A stretch of DNA of 64,000 nt, taken from IMG/VR virus record IMGVR_UViG_3300045988_005753. One strand, given 5' to 3'. Shown in pieces: positions 53,957 through 62,968 of this stretch; positions within the stretch are counted from its first letter, which is position 1; each line of letters starts with the position of its first letter. Both the position numbers and the translations under genes were made by a program. The notes below the pieces were generated by a model. It worked only from the letters and a program-made list of their open reading frames with translations. It ran no database searches and had not been told where the DNA came from. Source of the stretch: a virus (Duplodnaviria; Heunggongvirae; Uroviricota; Caudoviricetes).

Positions 53957-54157
53957 ATGAAGATGAGAGTAAAAGACAATTTTAAAGTTATTGACCACCG
54001 TTTAGTGGAACTCTCATCTCTTTCCAATGAGGTAATGATTGAACGTCTTAAGAGAGTTGAATCACGAAGGAAAGAGATTGCAGATGAAATTCATGAACTG
54101 GACAAGATTGAAAATGGATTGAAGGCAGAACTACAACGAAGAGGTGCTAATGTCTAA
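53957..54157 (+). CDS. small hypothetical protein
   Basis: 66-aa ORF. Confidence 0.45.
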   Translation: MKMRVKDNFKVIDHRLVELSSLSNEVMIERLKRVESRRKEIADEIHELDKIENGLKAELQRRGANV

Positions 54158-56135
54158 AGGTCGTAAATTGAAAGAGGCTGGTCAGTTTGTTGGTCATTGC
54201 GCATGTCCACGTTGTGGTTCATCAGATGCTGGTTCAATCTATCATCATGACGATGATTCTTATTCAATGACTTGCTTTAGTTGTAACAAAGGTTTCCCAG
54301 AGTGGGATTTTGATAAAGGACAAATCGTGAGCACTTATTCTACTGGTTCAGACAATAAAAACCGTACTTTCCGTGGAATGGATTTAGACGATGTAAAAGA
54401 AAACCTAGAAGCAATGGACTTGAAAGATAGGAAGATTCCTGCAAAAGTCCTTGAACGCTTAGGTATCAAGGTTGACATTGACAGTGACGGTGAAATTGAT
54501 GCGCACTTCTATCCAACTTACAAACGTAATGAAGATGGTAAGCTAGCACATGTTGGCTACCGTGTTCGTCACCGTTACCCAGAAGACCATCCAAAAGAGC
54601 ACCTACGTGGTAAGCTAAAAGACTTTTCTGGTGGTGTTGGAGACATTAAAGGTGAACTGGCAATGTTCGGTTCATGGATTGCTCCAGAAGGTGGTAACCG
54701 TCTATTCATCTGGGAAGGTGAGATGGAATGTGCGACAGCAATCTACATGACTTCTTTGGCGATTAAAGATAAGTCTCGTCGTAAGAATTACTGTCACGTA
54801 TCTGTTCCGTCAGGTGCAAACATTAAGTCTATCAAAGACAACTATCAGTACATCACATCATTTGATGAGATTTACTTGTGCTTTGATAACGATGAAGCAG
54901 GTGCTAAAGCTACCAAAGAGGCTGCTGGTATCCTACCTATTGAGAAGGTTCGTTTATTCCAGTATCCAGAAGGTGTAAAAGACCTTAACGAATGGTGGAC
55001 AAAGTTCTATAAAGAGAAAGACACAGTTCTTGAAGGGTTTAAGCAGCGTATCTACAATGCGCCCCGTTACTGCCCTGCTGGTATCAAGAACTTCGCAGAT
55101 GGTTTTGAGGCAATGAAGAATCGTGGTCAGATTCCATTGATTCCTTTCCCAGAATCTTTCGGAGATTTGAACAGGCTGACTTATGGCGGTTACGGTTTAG
55201 GTGAGATTACAACTCTGGCAGCACCATCTTCAGTGGGTAAATCTGCATACACTCGTGAAATGATTTATACTGCTTGGAAAGATACCGATTACAATATTGG
55301 TGTAATTCCTGTAGAAGATACCTATGAAGAGTTGATGGAGATGCTTTGTGCAATCCACCTGAGCAAGCAGATTTCTGAGATTCCTTATGACGAACGTGAT
55401 TGGGATGAATTGAAGGAAGCACATGCAGAACTGTCTAAAGGTCGTCGTATCCACATCGTAGACCATCAAGGGGCAATTGACCAAGATAACCTGCTGGAAT
55501 TTGTTGATTATCTTGTTAACAGTTTAGACTGTAAGATTATTATTCTTGACCCTATTACGTTGGCTCTGTCACGTTCAGATACGGATGAAGAGGAAGTTTT
55601 GTCTGAGCTATTGCGCCGTTGCAAACGCTACCAGTATGCACAGGTGAACGTCTGTCACGTTCGTAAGAGCGCAGGTGGTCAGAAAGCCAACTCTGAAGGT
55701 GGAGATATCTCTGAAGAGGATATTAAAGGCTCTGGTGCGTATTTCCAGATTTCTATGAACAACATTCTGTTAATGCGTAACAAGGTTGACCCAGACCCTG
55801 TTAAGAAAAACTTGACAAAAATCAAGTTAACTAAATGTCGTCGTCATGGTAAGTCAACTGGTATTGCTGGTCATACTTGGTACAATCCAGATACAGGACG
55901 TCTCATCAAAGCATCTGGTTGTGGAGTTGACATTGATGGCGCAGCAGAGAATATTCGCCAACAGTTTGGTATTGGTGAAGCTGAAGACCATTACGATGAC
56001 TCTTTGCCACATTATGAGGATGAAGTGTTTGACCGTGAGACTGGTGAAGTCTATACTGAAGAGCAGCGTCAAAGCTCAACGATTCCACCTGTATTAAGTG
56101 AGGATGCAGATGACTGCCCGTTCGAAACTGAGTGA
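54150..56135 (+). CDS. bifunctional DNA primase / DnaB-like helicase (T7 gp4-like)
   Basis: N-terminal zinc ribbon CACPRCGS...CFSCN, TOPRIM-like region, Walker A GEITTLAAPSSVGKSA; ATG at 54150 with AGAGGTG RBS. Confidence 0.85.
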   Translation: MSKGRKLKEAGQFVGHCACPRCGSSDAGSIYHHDDDSYSMTCFSCNKGFPEWDFDKGQIVSTYSTGSDNKNRTFRGMDLDDVKENLEAMDLKDRKIPAKVLERLGIKVDIDSDGEIDAHFYPTYKRNEDGKLAHVGYRVRHRYPEDHPKEHLRGKLKDFSGGVGDIKGELAMFGSWIAPEGGNRLFIWEGEMECATAIYMTSLAIKDKSRRKNYCHVSVPSGANIKSIKDNYQYITSFDEIYLCFDNDEAGAKATKEAAGILPIEKVRLFQYPEGVKDLNEWWTKFYKEKDTVLEGFKQRIYNAPRYCPAGIKNFADGFEAMKNRGQIPLIPFPESFGDLNRLTYGGYGLGEITTLAAPSSVGKSAYTREMIYTAWKDTDYNIGVIPVEDTYEELMEMLCAIHLSKQISEIPYDERDWDELKEAHAELSKGRRIHIVDHQGAIDQDNLLEFVDYLVNSLDCKIIILDPITLALSRSDTDEEEVLSELLRRCKRYQYAQVNVCHVRKSAGGQKANSEGGDISEEDIKGSGAYFQISMNNILLMRNKVDPDPVKKNLTKIKLTKCRRHGKSTGIAGHTWYNPDTGRLIKASGCGVDIDGAAENIRQQFGIGEAEDHYDDSLPHYEDEVFDRETGEVYTEEQRQSSTIPPVLSEDADDCPFETE

Positions 56136-56609: not shown

Positions 56610-57467
56610 ATGTCTAAAGTTGTTAAAATGAAAGCTCCGGTAGAGAAGTACAACGGTACTGAACGTCAAACTCTGCGTTACCTTCTGAAAGATGTCTGGT
56701 TTTATTACCTGAACACTTCACCACGTCCGGGAAAAGGTAAGTCTATTGATAAGAAATTTCCAGGCAAAGATTGTAACTACAGCGTATCAATTCTGGCAGA
56801 AGACGGTAACAAACTGTTTAAAGAGTTTACTAAGTCTAAGAAAAATCCAGAAGGCTGGGATAAAGTCACTACTGAAGCAGTTGATGCAGATGACTTCGAA
56901 GAGAAGTTTGGTTGCAAACCACCATTTGAAGCAGATACTTACTACATCTTGAAAGTAAGTCGTGCAGCAGCTTATAAAGATGGTGCTGTGTGGACAGCTA
57001 AACAGTCATTCCCTGTAATGCTGATTGAAGAAGTAAATGGTAAGCGTGTAGCTGTTAAGCAGCCGATGAAGAAAATCAAAGCTCAAGCATCTGATAAACA
57101 TGAAGATGACAAGAACTATGATGTAATTCATCCAGATATTGCAGTTGGTAACGGTTCTTTTGGTAGTGTGATTCTTTCTACTCACTTCTACACTTTTGAG
57201 AACAATGTCTTGACAAAGCCTATTCAGGAACAGTTTATCATTGATACTCTTGTACCTTACACTGGTGGTAACGGTGCTAATGGTGAGCCTGAACTGGATG
57301 AAGATGAATTGGCTATGCTTGGTCTTGATGGTGTTGAAGATAACGGTGAAATCACTGAAGAAGACGCAACAGACCATAAATCTTCGAATGATTCTGATGA
57401 TGGTGACGATGAAGACTTGCCAGACCCAGATGACGAAGAAGATGAAGACTTCGATACAGAAGACTAA
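56610..57467 (+). CDS. single-stranded DNA-binding protein-like (acidic C-terminal tail)
   Basis: C-terminus DDGDDEDLPDPDDEEDEDFDTED resembles the acidic tails of T7 gp2.5-type SSBs; lies within the replication module. Confidence 0.45.
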   Translation: MSKVVKMKAPVEKYNGTERQTLRYLLKDVWFYYLNTSPRPGKGKSIDKKFPGKDCNYSVSILAEDGNKLFKEFTKSKKNPEGWDKVTTEAVDADDFEEKFGCKPPFEADTYYILKVSRAAAYKDGAVWTAKQSFPVMLIEEVNGKRVAVKQPMKKIKAQASDKHEDDKNYDVIHPDIAVGNGSFGSVILSTHFYTFENNVLTKPIQEQFIIDTLVPYTGGNGANGEPELDEDELAMLGLDGVEDNGEITEEDATDHKSSNDSDDGDDEDLPDPDDEEDEDFDTED

Positions 57468-57530: not shown

Positions 57531-58571
57531 ATGGAGAAGTACACATTAACAAAACTTCCAGATTCAGTTACACATGTCTTTATTGACTCTGACAGCATTG
57601 CCTATAAAGGTGCTTGTGTAGTTGAGAAAGCAAAGTATAAATACGTTAATAAACTCACAGCAGAAGAATCTGAACCATTTGATAATGCGAAAGATGCTGC
57701 AAGATGGTTAGCAGACCAGAGAATCCTTGTGGAAGAGCTTGGCCTGACATTTGATGAAGATGAATGGGAAAGACAAACTTGGAAAGAAGCTAAGAGTGAA
57801 AAAGAAGCTATCATGGCTACTCAACAGGTTCTTCAGGAATGGCTTAAGGTTGTTGGTAAAGAAAGAACTTGGGTGGGTTATTTAACAGAGAAAGGTGTGC
57901 ATAAACATAAAGACATTAAAGGTCTTGAGCACCAATATCAAGGTAACCGTAAAGATGCTGTCACACCAACACACTTAGTCGCTTGTCGTGAATACCTTTT
58001 ATCCAGACCAGAGTTCAAGCTCTTAAAGGGAGGCTTCGAAGCCGATTCAATCGTAATTGCTAAAGCTGAAAAGATGGGTAAGAAGGCTGCTCTTATGAGT
58101 ATTGACAAAGACCTTCGACAAGCTGAAGGAACTTATTGTATTGATATGACTTATGAAAAATCACCACTAATCTTTATTGCTGATAATAATGTTGGTGATA
58201 TCTGGGATTGTCCTATCAAATCAAAACCAAAAGCTGCAAAAACAGTTGGTGTAGGTTTTAAATTTTTGTGTTATCAGGCTGTTGCTGGAGATAATGCAGA
58301 CAACTACTTTGGCCTTAAAGGTGCTGGCAAAGTAGCTGTGATGAATGCTTTAGATGGTAAAGAGACCTATAAAGAGTGCCTTGACGCTATCTATGAACTC
58401 TATGCTAAAAAAGAGTCTTACACCTATGTGTCATGGGATGGACAGACTGTTACCAAAACACCATTAGAGTTAATGGAGCAACATTTCTGGATAGCATATC
58501 AAGAGAGAAATCCAAAAGATAATTTCTCTTTTAAGAAATATAATTGGGAGCCGTGTATGAATGAAGATTAA
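57531..58571 (+). CDS. 5'-3' exonuclease / flap endonuclease-like protein
   Basis: N-terminal HVFIDSDSIAYKGA resembles the FEN-family metal-binding motif; position beside primase and SSB. Confidence 0.45.
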   Translation: MEKYTLTKLPDSVTHVFIDSDSIAYKGACVVEKAKYKYVNKLTAEESEPFDNAKDAARWLADQRILVEELGLTFDEDEWERQTWKEAKSEKEAIMATQQVLQEWLKVVGKERTWVGYLTEKGVHKHKDIKGLEHQYQGNRKDAVTPTHLVACREYLLSRPEFKLLKGGFEADSIVIAKAEKMGKKAALMSIDKDLRQAEGTYCIDMTYEKSPLIFIADNNVGDIWDCPIKSKPKAAKTVGVGFKFLCYQAVAGDNADNYFGLKGAGKVAVMNALDGKETYKECLDAIYELYAKKESYTYVSWDGQTVTKTPLELMEQHFWIAYQERNPKDNFSFKKYNWEPCMNED

Positions 58572-59058
58572 AGGATTTGGCAATTGTCCCACCTACGGTC
58601 ATTGGGTATCTTTGTGTGGGGAAGTTGACCCCACTAAACATTTTGGCTTTGTCTATTTAGTATACTGTAAGAAAACCGGACAATACTATATCGGAAAGAA
58701 ACAGCTTAATAGTGTGACCAAAAGAAAAGTTGCTGGTAAGACTCGGAAGAAGGTAGTCACTAAGGAAAGTGATTGGATGACTTATGAGACTTCTTCTGAG
58801 TATATTAAAAAAGATATTGAAAGCTTTGGAAAAGAATCTTTTGACTTTTACATTATTCAAACCTACTACACAAAAGGTGGCCTAGTCTATGGTGAAGCAA
58901 ACCTTCAACATAAATTCGATGTAATGACAAAAAGGATTGACTCGAAGCTCAGACTCTTCTACAATGCCAATATTGCAGCAATTAAGTTTATTACTAAAGA
59001 AACTTATGAAGATGCTGAAAAAAGAATCCATAAGGTAATGAAAGCAAATTGTGCTTGA
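58561..59058 (+). CDS. GIY-YIG nuclease-like protein (homing endonuclease candidate)
   Basis: FGFVYLVYCKKTGQYYIGKK matches the GIY ... YIG spacing. Confidence 0.5.
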   Translation: MKIKGFGNCPTYGHWVSLCGEVDPTKHFGFVYLVYCKKTGQYYIGKKQLNSVTKRKVAGKTRKKVVTKESDWMTYETSSEYIKKDIESFGKESFDFYIIQTYYTKGGLVYGEANLQHKFDVMTKRIDSKLRLFYNANIAAIKFITKETYEDAEKRIHKVMKANCA

Positions 59059-59064
59059 TAACTA

Positions 59065-59328
59065 TTGAGAGAGAATAAAATGTTTAACAAAAGTAAAGCT
59101 GTGAGTCATGTAGCAAAAGTTGACAGCAAGATTGAAGAACTTGAGCGCATTCTTGCAAATGCCAGAGAGTCGATAATTAAAGAGGTTGAAGCTGTTGAAT
59201 CTCAAATGCAGCACCTAATGCTTAAACGTCAAGAGCTACGTGAGCATCTGGAATATATTGAAACACGAGAGCTAAAGGTTAACAGATATTTTAAGGAGTC
59301 CAAATGTTTAACTCAAGAGAATCAGTAA
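59065..59328 (+). CDS. hypothetical coiled-coil protein
   Basis: 87-aa ORF. Confidence 0.45.
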   Translation: MRENKMFNKSKAVSHVAKVDSKIEELERILANARESIIKEVEAVESQMQHLMLKRQELREHLEYIETRELKVNRYFKESKCLTQENQ

Positions 59329-60059
59329 AAAACTGGAATCTTCGTTGTGGAAACACTCAAAAGCAACCTTACAGTGATGAGTATTGGGAATCTTTGAAAT
59401 CTCAATCTCTGTGTATGCTTGAAGAAGCAAAAGAGCTTGTAAAAGCAATTGAAGAGAAAGACCCCATTGAGACACTGGATGCTCAGGCAGATTTGCAATA
59501 TGTTCTTGACGGTTTGATTTACCTGTCACAACATGACCATAACGGTGCTATGAAAGCTGTTTGCCATAATAATGACCTGAAGTACACAGACGACTATGAA
59601 GAAGCTTTAAAGCGTCTTGCAGATATTGAGAAGCGTACTGGTCAAGAGTGTATCATCAGAATGTCAGTAGTTGATGGTAAAGAGTGGTATGCGATTGTTC
59701 GTGCAGCCGATGGGAAGATTATGAAGCAATCAAATCTCCCTAAAGTTCAGCTTGGTGAATACATTGTAGAACTTGAAAGCCAAGAACTTTTTGTGGTAGT
59801 ATCTGACACATGCGTTATCTGCAAAGGTATTGTATGTAGCTTAAAGGATTTGGGTGTAGATGGTTTTGTAGAAGTTAATCCAATTACCTCTAAAGCAGAT
59901 AAAGATTTCTGTAAAGAGAATGGACTATGGATTGCAGATATTGTCTACTATGATGGTGAGCAGTTCCATGTAACCTCATACCCGAAACTGAATTATGATG
60001 CTAATAACCTGAAGTGCTGGTTAAAAGGGGTTGGTTATAATGGATTCACAGAACATTAA
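59304..60059 (+). CDS. hypothetical protein
   Basis: AAGGAG RBS; 251 aa. Confidence 0.5.
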   Translation: MFNSRESVKNWNLRCGNTQKQPYSDEYWESLKSQSLCMLEEAKELVKAIEEKDPIETLDAQADLQYVLDGLIYLSQHDHNGAMKAVCHNNDLKYTDDYEEALKRLADIEKRTGQECIIRMSVVDGKEWYAIVRAADGKIMKQSNLPKVQLGEYIVELESQELFVVVSDTCVICKGIVCSLKDLGVDGFVEVNPITSKADKDFCKENGLWIADIVYYDGEQFHVTSYPKLNYDANNLKCWLKGVGYNGFTEH

Positions 60060-60363
60060 TAAAGAAGGTGTGGCTCAGAAGAGCCACTTCTCAAACTACA
60101 ATATCTCTATGACGGTGTTTATGAATGACCCGTTACTTGAGAAGTATGGTGAGACTCCAGATACACTTCTGGATAATGAACAAGTTTTAAAAGCAGTCCT
60201 GTACAAATACGGGATTGATATTGAGAAAGAGTATTCTTTTGAAATCTGTCAACACAGGAATACTTTTGGTAAAGTTGTAATGGCTCCACTCTTCATGGGT
60301 GTAGAAAGAACTGACTATGGTTGGTTATATCTAAAAAGAAACTTGGAGAAATACCGTGTCTAA
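60040..60363 (+). CDS. hypothetical protein
   Basis: track ORF starts on TTG at 60031; ATG at 60040 chosen. Confidence 0.45.
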   Translation: MDSQNINKEGVAQKSHFSNYNISMTVFMNDPLLEKYGETPDTLLDNEQVLKAVLYKYGIDIEKEYSFEICQHRNTFGKVVMAPLFMGVERTDYGWLYLKRNLEKYRV

Positions 60364-60733: not shown

Positions 60734-62968
60734 ATGATTAAGACAATTAAAAAATCAAACGGTACAGTGGTAAGTTTTGACCCAGAAAGACTGAATAAGT
60801 GGGCATCATGGGCAGATAAGCGTGGAATCATCTGGTCAGAAGTCACTATGGAAGCCATGAAACGTGTCTATGAAGGTTGCACCACAAAAGAGATGCACCA
60901 AGCCATGATTGATGTTTGTGTTGATAAACAAACTCAAGAGTACTCAGACATGGCTGGACGGCTACTTCTGGGGATTATCTACAAAGAAGCCTTTGGAGGC
61001 TTTACTAAGGTTCCTACGCTGGTTACCTTCGTTAAAAATATGGAGAGAGCAGGACTTTGGGAGAAAATGGACTATTCTCAGGAAGAGCTTGAATATCTGC
61101 AAGGGTATATTGTGCACTCAAAAGATATCTCTTACGGCTATGCAGTGTTGAAACAGTTCAGAGACAAATATGGTATCCGTGATATTAAAACAGGAAGACT
61201 TTTTGAGTCACCACAGTTTATGTTTATGGGTATGGCTATGAAAGCCTTTGAGAAGCAACCAAAACACCGTAGACTGCAAGATGTGATTAAGCTGTACACT
61301 TACTTATCTGACCTGAAGATTAACGCTCCTACGCCTTATCTGAATGGCTTAAGAGCTACTAAATCAGGTTATGCGTCATGCTGTTTGATTAAGGCGAATG
61401 ATACTGCTGAATCTCTAGGTATTGCTGCAAAGGTTGCCTATGACATGACCACAAAGCAAGCTGGTATTGGTATGCTGATGGAGACTCGCACTATTGGTGA
61501 TGGTATCCGTCAAAACACTATTGAGCACATGGGTAAACTGCCTTATTACAAGCTTGTACGTTCATCTGTAGAGGCAAATAAACAGAAGAGTCGTGGTGGT
61601 TCAGCTAACAACTTCTACACCGCTCTAGACCCGCAGATTGAAGATTTACTACGTTTGAAGCACCCTACAACGGTTCCTTCTAAACGTATTAATGAGATGG
61701 ACTACTCATTTGGTACAAATGATTATTTCTGGCAGTGTGTTCAATATGATACAGATTGGTTGCTATTCTCTTACAAGGATGCACCAAAACTTTATGATAT
61801 GTTCTACACCGCATCTGCTGATGAGTTTGCTATGGCAGTTGGTCACGCAGTACATTCTGGTGTTAAACATAGACGAGTAAAGGCTCGTGAAATTGCTAAA
61901 CTGTTTATCCAGCAGCGTTATGCAACAGGTCGTGTGTACCCATTCTTCACAAATAATGCAAACACACATACACCATTTAAAGAGCCTTTGAAGATGTCAA
62001 ATCTTTGCATGGAAATTGTGTTGCCAGTGTACGGCTTTGAGAAAGAGACAGACCTTTACAGAGATGATGCTGTGAAAGAGGATGGTGAGGTAGCTCTTTG
62101 CTTCCTAGCTAGTTTGGTTGCAGGGAGAATTTCAGAAGATGAATACGCTGACGTTGCTTATTATGCTCTTGCAATGGTTGACTCCGTTATTGACCTTATG
62201 GATTATCCGTATCCATCGATGCGCAACCATGTTCAGAAGCGTCGTTCTGTTGGTATTGGCCTTACAAATGTGGCTCATTACCTTGCGAAAAACTACGTGA
62301 ACTACTCTTCAAGAGCAGGTAAAACGAAGCTTCATGAGCTTGCTGAAATGCACTCTTACTACTTACACGAAGCTTCTTTAAGACTTGCTAAAGAGCGTGG
62401 TGTACCTGAATACATGAAGTTCACTAAGTATCCTGAAGGATGGGTTCCTCCGAAGACAGCTAACAAGAAGATTGATGAGAAGCATGATGCAAAACTAAGA
62501 TATGATTGGGAAGACTTAGCACAACGTATCAAAGAAAATGGTGGCATCCGAAACTCTGTACTTGAGGCTTATATGCCTAATGAGAGTTCTTCACTGGCAA
62601 CTAACACGACAAATGGCTTGTACCCAATTCGTGACTTTATTTTAACTAAAAAGTCTGCAACTGGTAACGTACTGTTTATTGTTCCAGATTATGAAGAGTT
62701 AAAGTATGTCTATGAAATTGCTTGGGCTATTGACACCTTTGACCTGATTGATTGTTATGCAATTGTTCAAAAGTTCACTGGTCAAGCTATCTCTTCAGAC
62801 TTCTATGTTGACTATGCAAAGTCTAAGAAGGTATCATTGGCTCAAGCTTTAAAATACATGATTTACGCTAACTCGGTAGGTATGAAAACCATGTACTACC
62901 TTAACAGTCGCATCGGTGTAGGTAAGTCTGCACTGCAAGATGCCTATTGCGAGGGTTGTGGTGTTTAG
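60734..62968 (+). CDS. nrdA: ribonucleotide reductase class I alpha subunit
   Basis: active-site region NLCMEIVLP and N-terminal ATP-cone-like segment; 744 aa. Confidence 0.85.
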   Translation: MIKTIKKSNGTVVSFDPERLNKWASWADKRGIIWSEVTMEAMKRVYEGCTTKEMHQAMIDVCVDKQTQEYSDMAGRLLLGIIYKEAFGGFTKVPTLVTFVKNMERAGLWEKMDYSQEELEYLQGYIVHSKDISYGYAVLKQFRDKYGIRDIKTGRLFESPQFMFMGMAMKAFEKQPKHRRLQDVIKLYTYLSDLKINAPTPYLNGLRATKSGYASCCLIKANDTAESLGIAAKVAYDMTTKQAGIGMLMETRTIGDGIRQNTIEHMGKLPYYKLVRSSVEANKQKSRGGSANNFYTALDPQIEDLLRLKHPTTVPSKRINEMDYSFGTNDYFWQCVQYDTDWLLFSYKDAPKLYDMFYTASADEFAMAVGHAVHSGVKHRRVKAREIAKLFIQQRYATGRVYPFFTNNANTHTPFKEPLKMSNLCMEIVLPVYGFEKETDLYRDDAVKEDGEVALCFLASLVAGRISEDEYADVAYYALAMVDSVIDLMDYPYPSMRNHVQKRRSVGIGLTNVAHYLAKNYVNYSSRAGKTKLHELAEMHSYYLHEASLRLAKERGVPEYMKFTKYPEGWVPPKTANKKIDEKHDAKLRYDWEDLAQRIKENGGIRNSVLEAYMPNESSSLATNTTNGLYPIRDFILTKKSATGNVLFIVPDYEELKYVYEIAWAIDTFDLIDCYAIVQKFTGQAISSDFYVDYAKSKKVSLAQALKYMIYANSVGMKTMYYLNSRIGVGKSALQDAYCEGCGV

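Follow-up and report, generated by a model that had tools for sequence, protein, structure and literature searches.

A SegE-type GIY-YIG gene beside the exonuclease gene

The window analysed here, the whole 64,000-nucleotide stretch of IMG/VR virus record IMGVR_UViG_3300045988_005753 (Caudoviricetes), derives from a Felixounavirus (Ounavirinae) with ~98% identity to phage wV8, and our subject is one short gene in it that codes for a 165-amino-acid (aa) protein of the GIY-YIG nuclease type (Table 1). An earlier note, made from the sequence alone, had singled out this open reading frame (ORF) for two GIY-YIG-like motifs, FGFVYLVY (residues 28–35) and YYIGKK (residues 42–47), and the frame, its length and both motifs are exactly as it gave them. 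The start codon lies within the end of the upstream 5′-3′ exonuclease gene (phrog_107), giving an 11-nt overlap with the exonuclease stop, and a GGGAG sequence lies 10 nt 5′ of the ATG; the overlap is kept at all loci of our IMG/VR set that carry no HNH gene at this junction (see below). Together with the exonuclease gene, the GIY-YIG gene forms a co-oriented series that continues on the 3′ side with MazG and ribonucleotide-reductase genes, and with primase/helicase, exonuclease, MazG-like and nrdA genes around it, its placement inside a replication module is also borne out.

The designation ‘GIY-YIG nuclease-like’ likewise stands. The protein matches the Pfam family PF19835 (SegE_GIY-YIG) with an E-value of 1.2e-27 and 97 bits against a cut-off of 25 bits, residues 21–138 being aligned to profile positions 10–123 of 123, while the generic GIY-YIG model PF01541 is by itself not significant (E 3.9). 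T4 SegE matches PF19835 only marginally and in part (36.5 bits, profile positions 60–120), and therefore this Pfam family mainly describes proteins like the one in the window. Among PHROGs the best match is phrog_447 (E 4e-48), followed by three families labelled ‘homing endonuclease’. NCBIfam yielded only a sub-threshold match to a group-I-intron endonuclease model (E 0.015), PADLOC returned no match for the protein, and sequence searches of the PDB, run with the single protein and with a profile of 101 sequences, gave no significant solved relative.

An AlphaFold2 model of the protein built on 101 homologues (mean predicted local distance difference test score 94, predicted template modelling score 0.87) is closest to the catalytic domain of I-TevI and to other GIY-YIG nucleases, and has the three-stranded sheet plus helices of the superfamily fold. 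Its predicted strands comprise short N-terminal ones (including 15–17), the GIY strand (29–36), the YIG strand (42–48) and a third at 94–102, with extra hairpin strands at 50–55 and 64–69, and helices are predicted at 80–89, 105–118 and, at the C-terminus, 150–163. When conservation was scored over the 101 diverse homologues, down to 32% identity, 13 residues were invariant (W15, G29, F30, Y32, Y43, G45, K47, W72, Y75, S78, E112, Y134 and N135) and H14, K46 (100/101) and Q48 nearly so, residue 105 being always K or R. Two Tyr, a Glu and an Asn define the GIY-YIG active site (PMC1564403), and the whole set is found among the invariant residues. Past the GIY and YIG strands, residue equivalences rest on motif order, because hhalign gave no significant profile alignment with either I-TevI or EndoII; the region of the Glu helix was poorly aligned by MAFFT --add. 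Judged by motif order together with secondary structure, E112 is presumed to be the metal-binding catalytic Glu equivalent to I-TevI E75, and N135 would correspond to I-TevI N90. Between the YIG strand and the first helix lies a Lys/Arg-rich β-hairpin that falls in a 19-residue gap of the SegE alignment; its basic residues are conserved at positions 60–64 and 68, and we infer that it is a candidate DNA-binding element.

No second Pfam domain was detected in the protein even at E≤10, and no NUMOD or helix-turn-helix (HTH) module; beyond N135 the chain continues for only 30 residues, which include one helix. What is missing is the module for DNA binding, be it NUMOD, HTH or zinc finger, that would give a Seg-type homing endonuclease its long recognition site. 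A word-index search for homologues had returned just 14 proteins, and it was the profile search together with an exhaustive search of representatives that revealed the wider family, which comprises 2,262 clusters at 50% identity (E≤1e-3). Protein length in this family is bimodal (among the best 150 representatives, 59 are of at most 180 aa and 79 exceed 220 aa), and the 85 long members examined carry NUMOD3 (52), an I-HmuI-type NUMOD (7) or NUMOD1 (4), with assorted HTH domains in others. The long form has the classic two-module architecture of a GIY-YIG homing endonuclease, and the window protein belongs to the short class. The T4-like phage RB16 provides an example of the former: between nrdC and nrdD, a location classic for homing endonucleases, it encodes a long-form member of 359 aa that begins with a SegE-type GIY-YIG domain (L009:3492-4571). 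The 165-aa protein is a catalytic-domain-only member of the SegE-type family with a GIY-YIG fold.

Table 1. Coordinates of the features discussed (window positions, unless preceded by the handle of a comparison locus)
Feature	Position	Strand	Remarks
Gene for the 165-aa single-domain SegE-type GIY-YIG protein	58561..59058	+	stop included; ATG start
5′-3′ exonuclease gene, upstream partner	57531..58571	+	346 aa
Exonuclease/GIY-YIG junction	58546..58571	+	GGGAG Shine-Dalgarno sequence 58546-58550; ATG 58561; exonuclease stop 58569-58571
G13-H14-W15 motif	58597..58605	+	family-specific N-terminal extension 5′ of the GIY strand; G13 90/101, H14 98/101, W15 101/101
‘GIY’ motif FGFVYLVY	58642..58665	+	predicted strand β1; G29, F30, Y32 invariant; aligned to SegE FVY
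‘YIG’ motif YYIGKK	58684..58701	+	predicted strand β2; Y43, G45, K47 invariant
Lys/Arg-rich β-hairpin insertion, residues 49–68	58705..58764	+	LNSVTKRKVAGKTRKKVVTK; candidate DNA-binding element
W72-x-x-Y75-x-x-S78-S79 motif	58774..58797	+	W72, Y75, S78 invariant; aligned to SegE GYLGSG
E112 codon	58894..58896	+	invariant Glu (101/101) in predicted helix 2
Y134-N135 codons, ‘YN’	58960..58965	+	101/101; putative counterparts I-TevI Y89-N90, SegE Y82-N83
Primase/helicase gene	54144..56135		5′ side of the GIY-YIG gene
MazG-like pyrophosphatase gene	59304..60059		3′ side
nrdA	60734..62968		3′ side
HNH-bearing loci	L017, L018, L020, L024-L028, L030-L032, L038; also L001:3031-3555		
Comparison loci of the family widely labelled ‘NAD synthetase’	L007:3417-3890, L008:3441-3911		

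Between the primase/helicase and exonuclease genes, a plus-strand ORF of 285 aa (56610-57467; phrog_3877, unknown function) ends in a strongly acidic tail (…DDEEDEDFDTED) recalling phage single-stranded-DNA-binding proteins such as T7 gp2.5.

Conservation of the gene and mobility at its 5′ junction

The earlier note had taken the gene for a free-standing homing endonuclease whose presence or absence in relatives would mark a mobile insertion. This identification did not hold. The 6 kb around the gene are 96–98% identical to ~240 Felixounavirus genomes (261 matching records in total), with wV8 and O157 typing phages as the best matches. DNA of the gene itself was found in 298 phage records, in 259 at no less than 80% coverage, beside 258 records for the exonuclease and 259 for MazG (at least 60% identity). 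Sorted by organism name, the records with the gene and with MazG number 122 and 120 for Escherichia, 80 and 81 for Salmonella, 29 and 29 for Erwinia, 23 and 23 for Shigella, and 14 and 14 for ‘Felixounavirus’; the gene is present in 259 Felixounavirus/Mooglevirus records and in 29 of 29 Erwinia phages. A few records that bear other names hold Felixounavirus sequence with 93–98% identity to the locus (GU169904, Staphylococcus phage SA1; MG065668 and other ‘Campylobacter phage’ records; P0008, ‘Methanobrevibacter gottschalkii’, an archaeal assembly) and are most likely chimeric or contaminated.

Gene order is equally stable: the succession exonuclease, HNH gene (in some), GIY-YIG gene, small ORF, MazG and, further on, nrdA is kept in Felixounavirus wV8, Mooglevirus Sf14, Kolesnikvirus SunLIRen and Pectobacterium phage Arno18. 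When IMG/VR loci were fetched via the exonuclease, 31 of the 32 had the GIY-YIG gene directly 3′ of it, all of them with an exonuclease at least 54% identical to that of the window, and the sole locus without it came from a distant phage whose exonuclease is 35% identical. Amino-acid identity of the GIY-YIG protein to its counterparts in wV8, Sf14, SunLIRen and Arno18 (98.8, 87.3, 60.6 and 49.1%, respectively) and its non-synonymous divergence (dN) track those of the exonuclease (96.8, 89.9, 54.7 and 52.8%) and of NrdA (92.5% to Sf14 and 57.4% to SunLIRen) over the four lineages, the corresponding values for MazG being 99.2, 76.5, 37.8 and 38.6%. The ratio of non-synonymous to synonymous divergence (dN/dS) is 0.04 relative to wV8, and the proportions of non-synonymous and synonymous differences (pN and pS) relative to Sf14 are 0.08 and 0.79, synonymous sites being saturated, so the gene is under strong purifying selection. 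Its GC content (0.35–0.375 against ~0.38–0.40) is only slightly low and similar to that of small ORFs nearby, and hence gives no compositional sign of recent acquisition; no paralogue was found within the window. The sporadic presence and absence among close relatives that typify a homing gene were not seen, nor was a history decoupled from the flanks with co-conversion tracts centred on the gene.

Escherichia phage EC6 (locus L038, NC_027369) was the only relative seen with a split copy, consisting of two ORFs that appear in BFVD with 87 and 91 aa (‘NAD synthetase’ twice); the split could be a frameshift or a sequencing error.

A presence/absence polymorphism does exist at this spot, as the earlier note had anticipated, except that it belongs to a different gene just upstream. 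An HNH-AP2 gene sits precisely between the exonuclease stop and the GIY-YIG start in wV8 (174 aa) and Sf14 (~163 aa), and the wV8 annotation mentions a similar HNH gene in Felix O1 itself. This insert is present in 13 of the 31 related IMG/VR loci and measures 487–493 bp in 12 of them; at the thirteenth, in EC6, 728 bp separate the exonuclease from the truncated match of the split GIY-YIG copy. The inserts represent several divergent alleles (100, 97, 85 and 49–58% aa identity to wV8 gp113), and that of the wV8 type reaches a coverage of 80% or more in no more than 22 phage records.

Identity to the window, profiled for nine Felixounavirus loci with the insert, drops locally from a background of 95–99%. 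Six of the nine show 75–86% nucleotide identity over 57960–58560, that is, over the 3′ 600 bp of the exonuclease gene, and at five loci the first ~150 bp of the GIY-YIG gene are also lower (77–79%); at the other three (L018 and L020 with wV8-like HNH alleles, L017 with an intermediate one) the dip is confined to the last 150 bp of the exonuclease gene (85–88%). A trough of this kind is what co-conversion at a homing endonuclease gene is expected to leave behind, and the only one at this locus goes with the HNH insert, not with the GIY-YIG gene. One locus that has no insert (L033, IMGVR_UViG_2974591419_000001) shows a divergent exonuclease 3′ tract all the same (78–85% over 57960–58560), which suggests loss of the HNH gene or a partial conversion event. 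The window itself, with an uninterrupted junction and no homologue of HNH-AP2 anywhere in the 64 kb, is the empty-site allele. The exonuclease/GIY-YIG junction (~58560) serves as a hotspot at which an HNH-AP2 homing endonuclease gene inserts.

Further mobile elements were noted in the replication/nucleotide module of Escherichia phage JohannRWettstein (Bas63), in which nrdD is annotated as intron-split, in two pieces with a ‘putative homing endonuclease’ ORF inside (L010:46630-49516), and a second homing endonuclease adjoins the DNA polymerase gene.

We conclude that the GIY-YIG gene is very probably a non-mobile core gene: fixed at its locus across four Ounavirinae lineages, co-diverging with its neighbours, under purifying selection and without a DNA-binding module. 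Its conservation at this locus in practically all relatives is one part of what the earlier note had named as refuting its reading; the other parts, a missing profile match and absent catalytic residues, were not seen, both being retained.

Possible roles of the protein

With confidence that is evenly balanced for the explanation as a whole, we propose that this gene belongs to the core of the Ounavirinae replication/nucleotide operon, fixed and inherited vertically, and that its product would be a low-specificity, EndoII-like endonuclease acting on host DNA. The protein would cleave DNA as an active, Mg-dependent endonuclease and would use the conserved GHW extension at its N-terminus and the Lys/Arg-rich hairpin for binding, probably as an oligomer, and, since these elements would stand in for a targeting domain, it would cut or nick with low sequence specificity. 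The openings so made in host (or branched) DNA would be entered by the co-expressed exonuclease, and the degradation products would feed the adjacent MazG and ribonucleotide-reductase salvage genes, in the manner of T4 EndoII or of the T7 pair gp3 and gp6. The specific part in host-DNA breakdown and salvage, argued by analogy, is rather less likely than not. There are precedents for such an architecture: T4 EndoII, Eco29kI and Cfr42I are single-domain GIY-YIG enzymes without a separate DNA-binding domain, and in EndoII, which is a tetramer on two DNAs, N-terminal and middle regions contribute to binding (PMC2764454). EndoII has a role in the breakdown of host DNA (PMC1564403), its gene, denA, abuts nrdB, and the short cyanophage homologues of the window gene directly follow nrdA-nrdB. 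Such a location can be read in two ways, since homing endonucleases, too, favour the vicinity of nrd genes (T4 mobE, I-TevIII and the 359-aa gene of RB16).

Several points weigh against this proposal. The nrd neighbourhood is just as characteristic of homing genes such as mobE and I-TevIII; a host-DNA role for short family members is argued by analogy only; and the similarity to EndoII is not significant (hhalign probability 0.3%). The DNA of Felix-O1-type phages is not known to be modified, which makes the sparing of the phage’s own DNA a difficulty for the proposal. The active-site geometry and the oligomeric state are predicted and putative, respectively, and the canonical GIY-YIG arginine has no clear counterpart: opposite I-TevI R27, in the register set by the W/Y residues, stands D71, a variable position, and hhalign places R27 inside the basic hairpin, in a non-significant alignment. 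K46 and K47, or the always-basic residue 105, are candidates for its position. Finally, T4 SegE, to which the protein is closer than to any other characterised one, has been proven to be a homing endonuclease (PMC2988022). A full-text literature search for Felix O1 together with GIY-YIG found nothing, and a comparative paper on Felixounavirus treats homing endonucleases only generically.

Three other functions were weighed. The protein might be a structure-specific nuclease resembling SLX1 or UvrC, which would act on flaps, nicks or junctions and, with the flap-endonuclease-type exonuclease, debranch concatemers during replication, recombination or packaging. The fold is common to SLX1 and UvrC, the gene is translationally coupled to a 5′-3′ exonuclease in a replication module, and its core status is what one would expect of a debranching enzyme; a weak additional point is that neither a Holliday-junction resolvase nor any other endonuclease of a non-homing kind is named in the annotations of Bas63 (1–50 kb) and wV8 (1–50 and 70–77.5 kb). 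We consider this function unlikely, yet the best placed of the three.

Somewhat less likely still is an endonuclease that still functions in homing or marker exclusion and has become fixed in the lineage; it would cut a specific site in competing phages without the gene, or with a sensitive allele, and be copied by recombinational repair. SegE, which homes at uvsW (PMC2988022), would be its model; more than half of the family representatives at 50% identity are two-domain NUMOD or HTH proteins, the gene lies near nrd, a known homing hotspot (in RB16, nrdC and nrdD flank a homologue), and its catalytic residues have been kept. An endonuclease of this kind is, however, hard to reconcile with the missing DNA-binding module and the lack of a paralogue, with the absence of any presence/absence polymorphism among ~300 records or the 31 metagenomic loci, and with a divergence that parallels the flanks without sign of horizontal replacement. 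In the very same genomes the HNH gene displays the mobile pattern (13 of 31 loci, several alleles), and the sole co-conversion-like tract follows it.

An inactive relic of a homing endonuclease, kept for overlapping regulatory signals or for a non-catalytic (DNA-binding or structural) role, appears improbable. T4 endonuclease genes have been retained for embedded promoters (PMC2988022), and the window gene contains a promoter-like site (58937-58965), lacks the C-terminal DNA-binding module and offers no clear counterpart of the arginine. Yet neither the promoter nor the terminator scan exceeded the shuffled expectation (promoter-like sites, 17 against 14.2 ± 4.2), purifying selection acts over the whole length of the gene, and none of the 101 homologues, which come from unrelated phage lineages, departs from the Tyr/Tyr/Glu/Asn set. 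The missing arginine is not evidence of inactivity, because SegE, a proven endonuclease, lacks it likewise, and a split copy occurs only in EC6.

That the gene encodes an NAD synthetase, as many GenBank and RefSeq records and PHROG 447 annotate it, can be dismissed, for no NAD-synthase or PP-loop ATP-pyrophosphatase domain is found at Pfam E≤10, the fold is that of GIY-YIG, and 165 aa is much shorter than known NAD synthetases. What speaks for it is the label as such, which is carried by phrog_447, by many records and by cluster T4-GC213 in a supplement (PMC3037559) whose excerpt bears no evidence code for it. In the same excerpt, T4-GC213 is present in most cyanophage genomes of the table of Sullivan et al., with 14 coordinate entries that include a fragment of 78 bp (PMC3037559), and a cyanophage transcriptomics paper counts ‘NAD synthetase’ among auxiliary metabolic genes (PMC7238727), although identity with this gene cluster is not confirmed. 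The gene has also been labelled ‘GIY-YIG homing endonuclease’, ‘hypothetical protein’, ‘HNH homing endonuclease’ and ‘baseplate hub assembly protein’, and the name ‘NAD synthetase’ should be regarded as a propagated annotation error. The 110-aa ORF at 60031-60363 (+; phrog_4007) also matches, over residues 48–101, phrog_3506 (E 4e-12), whose thymidylate synthase label is probably another dubious family label here.

Significance and comparison with known systems

The gene is already known, 95–99% identical copies being present in more than 200 deposited Felixounavirus genomes and a curated Pfam family being in place, and the value added here is modest: a negative answer on mobility, the identification of the HNH gene as the mobile element, and the recognition of the short subfamily as a near-core nuclease in two lineages. 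It follows that the GIY-YIG gene is unsuited as a marker of mobile insertion, a purpose served by the HNH-AP2 gene, which is polymorphic at the exonuclease junction. The window gene bears on the breakdown of host DNA by phages without modified DNA, and a single-domain nuclease that is near-universal and strongly conserved in two abundant phage groups, in which it has no characterised member, makes a reasonable and cheap target for biochemical and knockout work.

A bolder and rather doubtful extension is that the short SegE-type proteins are a domesticated homing-endonuclease catalytic domain that now serves as a core enzyme in two myovirus lineages unrelated to each other, the Ounavirinae and the cyanomyoviruses of marine waters. 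In both it might initiate breakdown of the host chromosome as EndoII does, or exclude competitors, by means of the basic β-hairpin and oligomerisation. If so, the cyanomyovirus form has been mislabelled ‘NAD synthetase’ and counted as an auxiliary metabolic gene.

T4 SegE is in the same Pfam family as the window protein, and the two match with 95% probability and an E-value of 3e-8 in a profile-profile alignment made with the family profile; both have the GIY Tyr, YIGK, Y-x-x-S, Glu and YN motifs and neither has an Arg at the I-TevI R27 position. SegE differs in its length (205 aa), its C-terminal half being wholly absent from the window protein, and in starting at the GIY strand, whereas the window protein has the extra N-terminal GHW extension and the basic β-hairpin of 19–20 residues; the window gene is moreover fixed and syntenic rather than sporadic. 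T4 EndoII (DenA), the functional model of the reading that we favour, has no significant sequence relationship to the window protein, carries directly after YIG a canonical Arg (R57) that the latter lacks, and discriminates self from non-self by the hydroxymethylcytosine in T4 DNA (PMC1564403). The catalytic domain of I-TevI (PDB 1LN0) shares 13–15% identity, the hhalign sequence-level comparison not being significant; I-TevI is encoded by an intron and cannot cleave without its linker, zinc finger and HTH, its R27 and H31 are not conserved in the window protein, and it lacks the basic hairpin.

The closest likeness in architecture is to cyanomyovirus T4-GC213 (Kyanoviridae) and the other short phrog_447 proteins, which are one-domain proteins of 130–175 aa with 30–37% identity and the same invariant residues, although the C-terminal helix (150–163) and the first ~10 residues are not common to all of them. 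T4-GC213 belongs to another phage family with another host and, like the window gene, is near-core in its own lineage, where it lies by nrdA-nrdB.

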